A stretch of 64,000 nt of DNA from Eledone cirrhosa (lineage: Eukaryota), in contig OZ024745.1 in NCBI GenBank assembly GCA_964016885.1, positions 130,572,001-130,636,000 of the forward strand. The letters are read 5' to 3'. The position numbers were made by a program, and so were the translations under genes. Positions 44,115 to 46,361 of the stretch are shown piece after piece (within the stretch, counting starts at the first letter, position 1; every line of letters starts with the position of its first letter). Under the pieces are notes generated by a model. It was given only the letters and a program-made list of their open reading frames with translations, had not been told where the DNA came from and did no database searches.

Positions 44115-44494
44115 GTAGAAGTTGTATTTAATTTGTTGGAAGTCCAACAAACATAAATGTTTATAACTTATTTAGAGCACTCAACAAGTTACTGGAGTAA
44201 ATGTTCCATGATATTAAATAAATGGAAGCTATATTTATAAAACCATATTTATTTTATTATATATATTTCAAGGTCAATTAAGACAACATTGGTGCGCTTT
44301 CATCAGATAAAATACAAAGTTTGTTTTATAAATAGAGACGTACCCATGAACATTCTACCTTATCGGTTGGAAATTCACTGGATTGTATTTTATCTGATGA
44401 AAGCGCACTAATGTTGTCTTGGTTGCCCTTGAAATGTATATAATAAAATAAATATGGTTTTATAAATATAGTTTCCATTTATTTCATATCATTG
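44115..44494 (-). mobile_element. PLE pLTR (about 44115-44377) followed by an inverted partial copy (44383-44494); HHR motifs at 44250-44314 (-) and 44386-44450 (+)
   Basis: TATTTTAT-CTGATGA-AAGCGCAC...GTTGCCCTT-GAAA-TGTATA-TA-ATAAAATA. Homologous to 45773-46038 and about 37589-37656. Confidence 0.82.
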
Positions 44495-44540
44495 TATATA
44501 TATATATATATATATATATATATATATATATATGTATGTA

Positions 44541-44727
44541 TGTAAAAGGTAAACAGAAATAACACAATCGGTACAGTATATGGAAGGTATATATTAGGTT
44601 AACGCTTGATAGAGCAGGAAGAGGGTCTTAACGTTTTGGACGCTAGTCCTTCATCACAAGAAATAATGAGAAAAATGATAGATTCAGGGGACGGGCGAGA
44701 TGGAATTGGAGAAAATGTCTTTAGATA
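44541..44727 (-). mobile_element. Family C repeat copy with decayed HHR
   Basis: Reverse complement of 841-1035. Minus strand TCTT-GTGATGA-A-GGAC(tagc)GTCC-AAAA-CG-TT-AAGA. Confidence 0.75.
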
Positions 44728-45772
44728 AAAATAACGGGTCCGTTCATGTTGACATCTCTTATATATATATATATATATATATATATATATATATATATAT
44801 ATATATATATATATGATGGACTCCCCGGACGTGGGGTGTCATTACTGGTGAAGACGGCTTGTGTTGGACCAGCCACACTTTTCTGAAATGTGGATGACAA
44901 AATATATATATATATATATATATATATATATATATATATATATATATATATATATATATATATATATACATATGTGTGTGTGTACGTTTGTATATATGTG
45001 TTTGTGTGCGTATGTGTATATATATATATATGTTTGTATGTATGTATATATACAACGTATATGCATCTGTGTATATGTATATATATGTACATTTATGGTT
45101 TAGGCTTATATACACCTATGTTTTTGTATGCTGTACTAAGCTAGGAATATATCTGGATATATTTGTGTATGCACCTATGTTTCAATCAGAGTATATTTAA
45201 ACATTGTTCGCTCTATATGTAGTAATACTTCAACATGACACTTCTGCATCGGTTGCAAAAATTAGTCTTTATCAAGAGTTCACCAGCGTGTAAAGTGACT
45301 CGTTACTAGGGTGGACCTCGAGGCGAGTATTAGATGTTTAATGAAATCATTTTCCTTCAAGACATAAAAACATAGTTCATACAAAGGCTACTCATTTTTA
45401 TAGTATACCAACGATAATTTCAAATAACATTCTGTTACTCACACCTACACACGTATACGTAGGGGGACATGAACACAGAGCGCTCGTATAAATATATATA
45501 TATACATATATATATGTGTGTGTGTGTGTGTGTGTGTGTGTGTGTGTGTGTGTGTGTGTGTGTGTGTATGTGTGTGTGTGTGTGTTTGTGTGTGTGTGTG
45601 TGTGTTTGTGTGTGTGTGTGTGTTTTTATGTGCATGTGTGTATGTGTGTGTGCTGTGCTTGTGTAGATAGTGCGGTTGGTATTACGTAAGTACGTCTGTA
45701 TGTGTGAATAAATAGAATTAATATATATTACATTTGATCTTAGCCAATATATACATATATATATATATATAA

Positions 45773-46038
45773 GTAGAAGGGGTATTTAATTTGTTGGAAA
45801 TCGGACAAATCTAAATCTAAATGTGTATAACTGATTTAGAGCACTCAACAAGTTCCTGGAGTAAATATTCAATGATATTAAATAAATGTAAACTATATTT
45901 ATAAAACCATATTTATTTTATTATATATATTTCAAGGGTACCAAAACACTTTGGTACGCTTTCTTCAGATAAAATACAAAGTTTGTTTTATAAATAGAGA
46001 TATACCAGGAAAAAAATACCTTATTAGTTGGATATTCA
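45773..46038 (-). mobile_element. PLE pseudo-LTR
   Basis: Diverged direct repeat of 44115-44377 with the same boundaries. Abuts the RT fragment. Confidence 0.8.
45914..45976 (-). ncRNA. Type-I hammerhead ribozyme motif in the pLTR
   Basis: Minus strand TATTTTAT-CTGAAGA-AAGCGTACCAAA(gtgt)TTTGGTACCCTT-GAAA-TATATA-TA-ATAAAATA. Confidence 0.88.
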
Positions 46039-46361
46039 AAAATGTTTTTATTAGCGGAGATGCATGAAATCCGTTTTTGGACACAATTGATAATAGTGTT
46101 CTTGATAGATCTAGGATGATTAGAGTTAAAACTTACATAGTTTAGATTCTCATTAATTTCATGGAATGGATAGTAGAGCCCTGTGTTAAGGTTTAATGTT
46201 AGGTCTAAAAAGTTAACAATTTTATAGTTATTCTCTATTTCTAACTTAAGGTTGTAGTTATTGAAGAATTGTATTATGGATTTTCTTTTCCTATTAATTT
46301 CACAATTACTATGATTTTCAATTAAAAGCAGCAAATCATCACGATATAAACCACCGGTCAT
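46036..46361 (-). pseudogene. Penelope-like element reverse transcriptase fragment (catalytic motif to thumb)
   Basis: ORF 45921-46361: GLYRDD ... VNFLDLTLNL ... YVSFNSNHP ... KRISCIS, characteristic PLE RT motifs. 5'-truncated, no GIY-YIG. Confidence 0.9.

Follow-up and report, generated by a model that had tools for sequence, protein, structure and literature searches.

How does a fragment of a Penelope-like reverse transcriptase (RT) come to abut a hammerhead-bearing pLTR with no endonuclease domain between them? This arrangement lies on the minus strand of a 64,000-nt stretch of the Eledone cirrhosa genome (contig OZ024745.1, positions 130,572,001 to 130,636,000; hereafter the window), which also carries a second pLTR copy. 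The initial annotation allowed for either an internal deletion or an endonuclease-less variant of Penelope-like elements (PLEs). We conclude with high confidence that the unit at 45.8-46.4 kb is a unique, 5'-truncated and internally deleted copy of an abundant, endonuclease-bearing Hydra-motif family, which lost ~1.8 kb at a 2-nt microhomology, likely by a template jump or a repair deletion. The unit consists of the following features.

46373..46435, minus strand: 5' junction patchwork of short scrambled repeats, then (TA)n.
46038..46372, minus strand: RT fragment (end of RT4, YRDD motif, start of thumb), 97% identical in DNA to the relative L044.
46335..46346, minus strand: codons of the YRDD catalytic motif.
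46036..46037, minus strand: RT-pLTR junction, where GA is a 2-nt microhomology common to the RT side and the pLTR side.
45773..46037, minus strand: pLTR (3' terminal region) of the CTGAAGA subfamily; it starts 71 nt ahead of the hammerhead core, reaches the long 3' end and is followed by (TA)n.
45914..45976, minus strand: type I hammerhead, from a motif scan and the predicted fold of stem II.

The minus-strand frame (GGLYRDD...ISANKNIF, 46372 to 46038) ran without a gap into the 265-bp repeat and stayed open across the junction. GIY-YIG sequence was absent from the whole window, in which a tblastn search with the 699-aa ORF of the parent family matched only 46035-46373. The open frame and the tblastn result bore out the earlier description of a YRDD-type RT running straight into a repeat of ~265 bp with no GIY-YIG between them. 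The fragment corresponds to residues 330-442 of the natural 699-aa ORF in one relative (L028), with 89% protein identity. It spans ~112 codons, is 5'-truncated and stops short of the thumb end; the window copy cannot encode a working RT. A 10-nt piece of its 5' end recurs 50 nt upstream, within the patchwork. Pfam returned no family for the RT fragment or for the 699-aa ORF; Atlas neighbours, at 0.96-0.98, include RVT_1 and GIY-YIG clusters (GIY-YIG, 26-58% of members). Just beyond the element, 46760-46990 is GC-richer with short open frames, and is possibly a fragment of another transposon.

The hammerhead of the RT-joined pLTR has an 8-bp stem I, the core CTGAAGA at 45968-45962, a long stem II with a C-C mismatch, GAAA, and a palindromic stem III, ATATATAT; its cleavage is predicted after 45922. 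The hammerhead call was based on motif and pairing. Rfam gave four weak non-hammerhead matches for the pLTR alone and did not recognise the hammerhead motif; for the whole window, the 150 listed of 204 matches were simple-repeat microRNA look-alikes alone. Single-strand folds were no better than shuffles (z -1.5 to +1.5), as expected because the motif is AT-rich with a short stem III. The core pattern had 4,504 exact matches in the genome (control, 0), and about 35 of the first 100 listed, counted by eye, had a GCAC stem II.

A DNA search of the same genome with the RT piece gave 6,261 first-look candidates, 40 of which were scored. Best matches among these genomic places were 95-97% identical to the RT piece, and every one except the window itself ended at query base 324-326, exactly at the junction. 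Translation of 30 loci gave the RT, then the linker KCNCRIKSNCP, then VVY..YVGATS..RWNNH..CKLCIEE..NSCRH. We extended 20 RT-anchored loci to 8-9 kb. The long copies comprise the RT, a CxCX5C linker, a GIY-YIG endonuclease, an AT-rich 3' UTR and then the same hammerhead pLTR. One copy (L032) has the full plan of inverted piece, 5' pLTR, ORF, AT-rich 3' UTR, 3' pLTR and (TA)n, and another (L044) measures ~3.3 kb from the start codon to the short end. The pLTR was found downstream on the same strand in 16 of the 20 relatives, 1,023-1,992 nt past the junction point (13 of the 16 at 1,733-1,992 nt), and was missing in four. Endonuclease motifs were kept in the skipped stretch of 15 of the 16 relatives with both sides, and CxCX5C in one frame in 11 of 16 decayed relatives. 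The window copy is without ~1.8 kb (1.7-2.0 kb) comprising the end of the thumb, linker, GIY-YIG and 3' UTR. In L047, a 230-bp stretch of another repeat is inserted in the 3' UTR (reference positions 2711-2943); pieces of it occur in many unrelated loci, and it is SINE-like.

Because the long relatives carry the same pLTR after the RT, the adjacency in the window is not due to chance, and the proposed link between the hammerhead elements and a PLE enzyme holds. The full-length relatives that the initial annotation called for were recovered with the same pLTR as the window copy, not a different one. Short pLTR copies are very common, as the 4,504 exact core matches show, and often start near the junction point, so that such a copy might have been inserted into an older RT remnant or have deleted part of one. 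This is very unlikely: the (TA)n target is missing at the junction, and the downstream half of the RT or the endonuclease was found neither on the other side nor elsewhere in the window. Moreover, RT and pLTR are on the same strand, and their similarity to relatives is comparable (RT, 95-97%; pLTR, 93-95%). The RT piece grouped with copies bearing a CTGAAGA pLTR, like that of the window, at a modest FastTree support of 0.87 from 7 informative sites, which suggests that RT and pLTR of the window copy belong to one subfamily.

By its motifs, the parent family fits the Hydra clade of Penelope-like elements. In the accessible text of Craig et al. (2021, PMC8557442), this clade is characterised by RWK, DKT and CxCX5C, the absence of CCHH, CxxC and CxH around the catalytic E and N, a hammerhead and (TA)n targets. 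Natural copies of the parent family have a single ORF with a C-terminal GIY-YIG (VVY..YVGATS..RWNNH..E..N after the RT), DKG modified to DKT (KSDKTNNLY in L019, L028 and L047), an N-terminal RWK-type motif (RRLRWR in L032; RWR occurs also in Hydra-1_Crog) and CxCX5C in the linker KCNCRIKSNCP. CCHH is absent from the endonuclease, with one cysteine only between VVY and YVG, and CxxC and CxH surround E and N (CKLCIEE and NSCRH in L010 and L018). The hammerhead is near the 3' end, and insertion is into (TA)n. Compared by eye, the family protein resembles the Hydra proteins of the supplement. As far as that publication is accessible, elements of the clade such as Hydra-1_Obim and Hydra-1_Crog share with the family the single RT-linker-GIY-YIG ORF and GLYRDD, the latter as in the supplement proteins, whereas Hydra-1_Obim differs in its hammerhead sequence, in a protein that is clearly diverged when compared by eye, and in the length of the AT-rich 3' UTR, which is longer in the parent family. 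A size under 3 kb is described there as a tendency of Hydra elements, one family being listed at 3,045 bp. The parent family is a new family in a known clade, unlisted in the accessible part of the supplement (PMC8557442). A Naiad/Chlamys PLE was ruled out: the endonuclease of the parent family is C-terminal and a hammerhead is present, whereas Naiad/Chlamys elements have an N-terminal endonuclease and no canonical hammerhead.

Is the junction itself a recurrent structure? A 28-nt junction pattern, searched over 3.0 Gb with 2 mismatches allowed, had one match (control, 0), so the suggested recurrence of the junction at about 46038 was not seen. A direct RT join within 1.5 kb was found at none of the 29 other best pLTR loci. 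Deletions with other breakpoints were present: L051 is without the endonuclease, and L050 and L076 are without parts of it. Five anchored genome-wide patterns gave 3, 0, 3, 1 and 0 matches, comprising two real joins of the family (window and L164), one join of a sister family (L208) and four that were not ORF joins. L164 (positions 1450-2260 of the locus; G000:C1:69.57 Mb) is an independent RT-to-3'-UTR join that carries an inverted 5' arm and belongs to another subfamily, at 85% identity. Its RT break lies within ~15 nt of the window's RT breakpoint, a closeness that tells against pure chance, and its pLTR-side break lies ~151 nt before the core versus 71 nt in the window. A hotspot for RT-side breaks, which L164 suggested, is unproven: a gapped genome-wide pattern found just the window and L164 as real joins, and its third match was an intact 3' UTR. 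In L208 (positions 1000-1890; G000:C5:87.59 Mb), the RT is joined to the pLTR through an inverted piece; this locus represents a sister Hydra family with ~56% protein identity and a common pLTR end. Two other sources of the junction were rejected: splicing, as there is no GT donor at the RT breakpoint, and premature polyadenylation, for which AATAAA is found 11 nt before the junction but poly(A) is lacking and L164 breaks earlier.

An endonuclease-less PLE variant, or an amplified non-autonomous subfamily in which the RT is naturally joined to the pLTR, could explain both the frame open across the junction and a second RT-to-3'-end join breaking so near the same RT position. We regard it as highly improbable. 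The same junction occurs in no other copy; L164 is of another subfamily, with a different pLTR-side breakpoint; the RT piece is just ~112 codons long; and the window has no TTAGGG- or TTAGG-type arrays and lies ~4.1 Mb from the contig end (130.6 of 134.7 Mb, contig C5). The unique junction, together with the endonuclease motifs kept in 15 of 16 relatives, thus decides against the variant offered by the initial annotation and leaves the internal deletion standing. Taken alone, the window copy resembles the EN-minus families Athena and Coprina in having an RT beside a hammerhead end without an endonuclease, but these are intact, telomere-associated families, whereas here there is one broken copy, derived from an EN+ family. 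Membership in EN-minus PLEs was ruled out, since the parent family has an endonuclease and the window is without telomeric repeats and not at a chromosome end.

Confirmation of the junction is limited to this assembly. Two RAD runs contain 23 and 19 reads, respectively, that pass from the RT side at 46036 into the family's normal continuation. No junction-bridging reads were found in these runs and no junction-bridging contigs in four other public runs, all from other samples and partly reduced-representation, which is no proof of absence. An assembly artefact joining two repeat pieces would account for the want of a spanning public read or contig, but the sequence has no N run, there is microhomology at the join, and private substitutions at 6 of 335 RT-side sites show that the copy is distinct and real; the public runs, moreover, were not shown to be from the source individual. 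We consider an artefact highly implausible.

The second pLTR copy in the window is part of a short insertion with two arms.

44115..44383, minus strand: sense arm of the CTGATGA/GCAC subfamily, beginning ~77 nt ahead of the hammerhead core and ending at the long 3' end.
44384..44494, plus strand: inverted arm, beginning at hammerhead stem I, ending at the short 3' end of the family and followed by (TA)n.

Compared with 45773-46037, 44115-44377 has 84.8% identity over 269 columns, and family homology extends ~6 nt past 44377, to ~44383. All three arms in the window carry the type I motif of 8-bp stem I, CTGANGA, stem II, GAAA and short palindromic stem III. The core, stem I and stem III of the second copy are kept, as annotated, but the stem II quoted for it, AAGCGCAC..GTTGCCCTT, was misplaced: it is carried by the inverted arm, and stem II of the sense arm is decayed and unformed in the predicted fold. 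The inversion reported beside this copy was found at ~44384-44494. As for the boundaries, said to be the same in the two copies, the 5' ends are near each other but not identical, 77 versus 71 nt before the core. Their agreement is not chance: the family has two fixed 3' ends, one of which is seen here, and many of its short copies begin ~80 nt ahead of the core.

Among the 29 best relatives, short insertions built like 44115-44494, with a sense and an inverted part, were common, and both window copies are flanked by (TA)n. The 44.1-44.5 kb copy and the RT-joined copy were inserted independently into a stretch rich in (TA)n; they belong to different subfamilies and are not two LTRs of one element. 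A composite element carrying 1.3 kb between two pLTR ends, as in rotifer PLEs, might be considered from two copies on the same strand 1.66 kb apart, and capture between pLTRs is described in the accessible text of PMC3846280. Its probability is close to negligible: the copies are 85% identical and of different subfamilies, each has its own (TA)n flanks, and the RT piece lies outside the pLTR pair. A non-LTR retrozyme, which according to the accessible part of bioRxiv 10.64898/2026.07.22.740005 has units in head-to-tail tandem that all carry a type I hammerhead, was ruled out for the 44.1-44.5 kb copy, as this has one sense and one inverted arm, not tandem head-to-tail units.

Other hammerhead-related sequences occur in the window. 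A near-perfect palindrome at 42380-42733 (176-nt arms, 99%) belongs to a different hammerhead family, in which stem II is longer and stem III contains GCGC; this family is also present in L037, L050 and L070. At 37575-37664 (minus strand), a third pLTR-related fragment retains GAAA, stem III, stem I and the short 3' end in (TA)n; its CTGA core is missing. Hammerhead-like motifs with a common CTGAAGAGGTCACAG core and sequence unrelated to the parent family lie at 36700-36812 (minus strand), where the motif ends in (TA)n, and at 23787 (plus strand).

We surveyed the ends of family copies in the first 100 listed core matches, which gave 90 loci and 99 distinct matches, one listed place being left out. 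The 3' ends fell into two classes, ~100 nt (short; 51/99) and ~190 nt (long; 41/99) after the core, with 7/99 elsewhere. At the 5' side, 48 of 99 stopped 55-86 nt before the core, a figure inflated by diverged subfamilies that lose their match to the four reference copies; 38 ran further and 13 stopped earlier. Loci in this pile-up (L112-L201; G000:C1, 1.8-106 Mb) can be compared with 44383 and 46037 in the window. The sequence ACTATCC at -80 was reached by 52 copies. Automatic classification placed 18 as stopping there, 12 of them with a G in front, and the templated C preceded ACTATCC in 31 of 34 copies not stopping there. After inexact stops were removed, two hand-classed loci added and one duplicated cluster collapsed, 8 of 13 independent exact stops showed G at the position that is C in the family (binomial p 0.0002-0.006, against a background of 15-25%). 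Near-identical insertions, L186-L189 (G000:C1:86.08-86.15 Mb) and L008 with L011, point to segmental or haplotype duplication and were collapsed before counting. In LINEs and processed pseudogenes, an extra G is a trace of the copied cap. The ACTATCC start, 80 nt before the core, is likely a capped transcription start, as judged from genomic ends. In the accessible literature, our search found no paper on a cap-derived G at PLE 5' ends.

We propose the following course of events. The family endonuclease would nick (TA)n. The RT would then prime at either of two fixed internal positions, ~100 or ~190 nt past the hammerhead core, and copy toward the RNA 5' end. Many cDNAs would end at or just before the likely capped start at -80 and would then join the target DNA or an inverted second copy; the 44.1-44.5 kb insertion may have arisen in this way. 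The pLTR of the RT-joined copy stops 9 nt short of that start; the sequence goes on in the RT region of the same subfamily and ends in the scrambled 5' junction. Hammerhead cleavage is presumably dimer-dependent, given the short palindromic stem III (cf. the accessible text of PMC4209133).

Several parts of this course have precedents. According to the accessible text of PMC8557442, it is usual for PLEs to have inverted 5' copies and tails, and Poseidon_Ac has two internal RT start sites (PMC11167929). As in Poseidon_Ac, genomic copies of the parent family end at two fixed 3' positions past the hammerhead, but these lie ~85 nt apart versus 30-40 nt in Poseidon_Ac, are located before the start codon, abut (TA)n and are known from genomic ends. 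The accessible text of PMC3846280 reports internal microhomology deletions and solo pLTRs for Penelope families of Adineta vaga, which share them and inverted pLTRs with the present case. There, the deletions and solo pLTRs are ascribed to DNA repair and recombination, whereas here the 5' pile-up and the extra G suggest direct reverse transcription of the RNA front end as the source of many solo copies.

When was the ~1.8 kb lost? A template jump during reverse transcription has, in our view, slightly better than an even chance. It is favoured because the pLTR stops at -71, in the zone where cDNAs end, and because the insert has a scrambled 5' end. For a DNA deletion after insertion, we put the chance a little below even. 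Ordinary deletions were present in 3 of 20 long copies, a frequency at which a few would land in the 55-86 nt zone by chance. A same-strand ORF join was found in none of 48 sampled copies ending in this zone, and of the family's two joins, window and L164, only that of the window falls in it.

If a jump occurred, the junction could be a fossil of a Penelope RT that switched, on its own RNA, from the capped front end to the RT-coding region. Short hammerhead copies, in their thousands, would then be complete front-end reverse transcripts, owing to priming sites inside the 5' pLTR, and the extra G would map the promoter to the base. We offer this larger reading tentatively, and hold it to be somewhat more doubtful than probable.

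The RT-joined copy itself is of small importance: among thousands of copies it is one dead deletion product, and such products have already been described for Penelope elements. Through it, the hammerhead repeats of the window are tied to an endonuclease-bearing Hydra-clade family. In that family, the 5'-end pile-up with the extra G gives a candidate transcription start and a possible origin of solo pLTRs other than recombination. If the front-end reading is true, the extra G would map a Hydra-clade promoter to the base.
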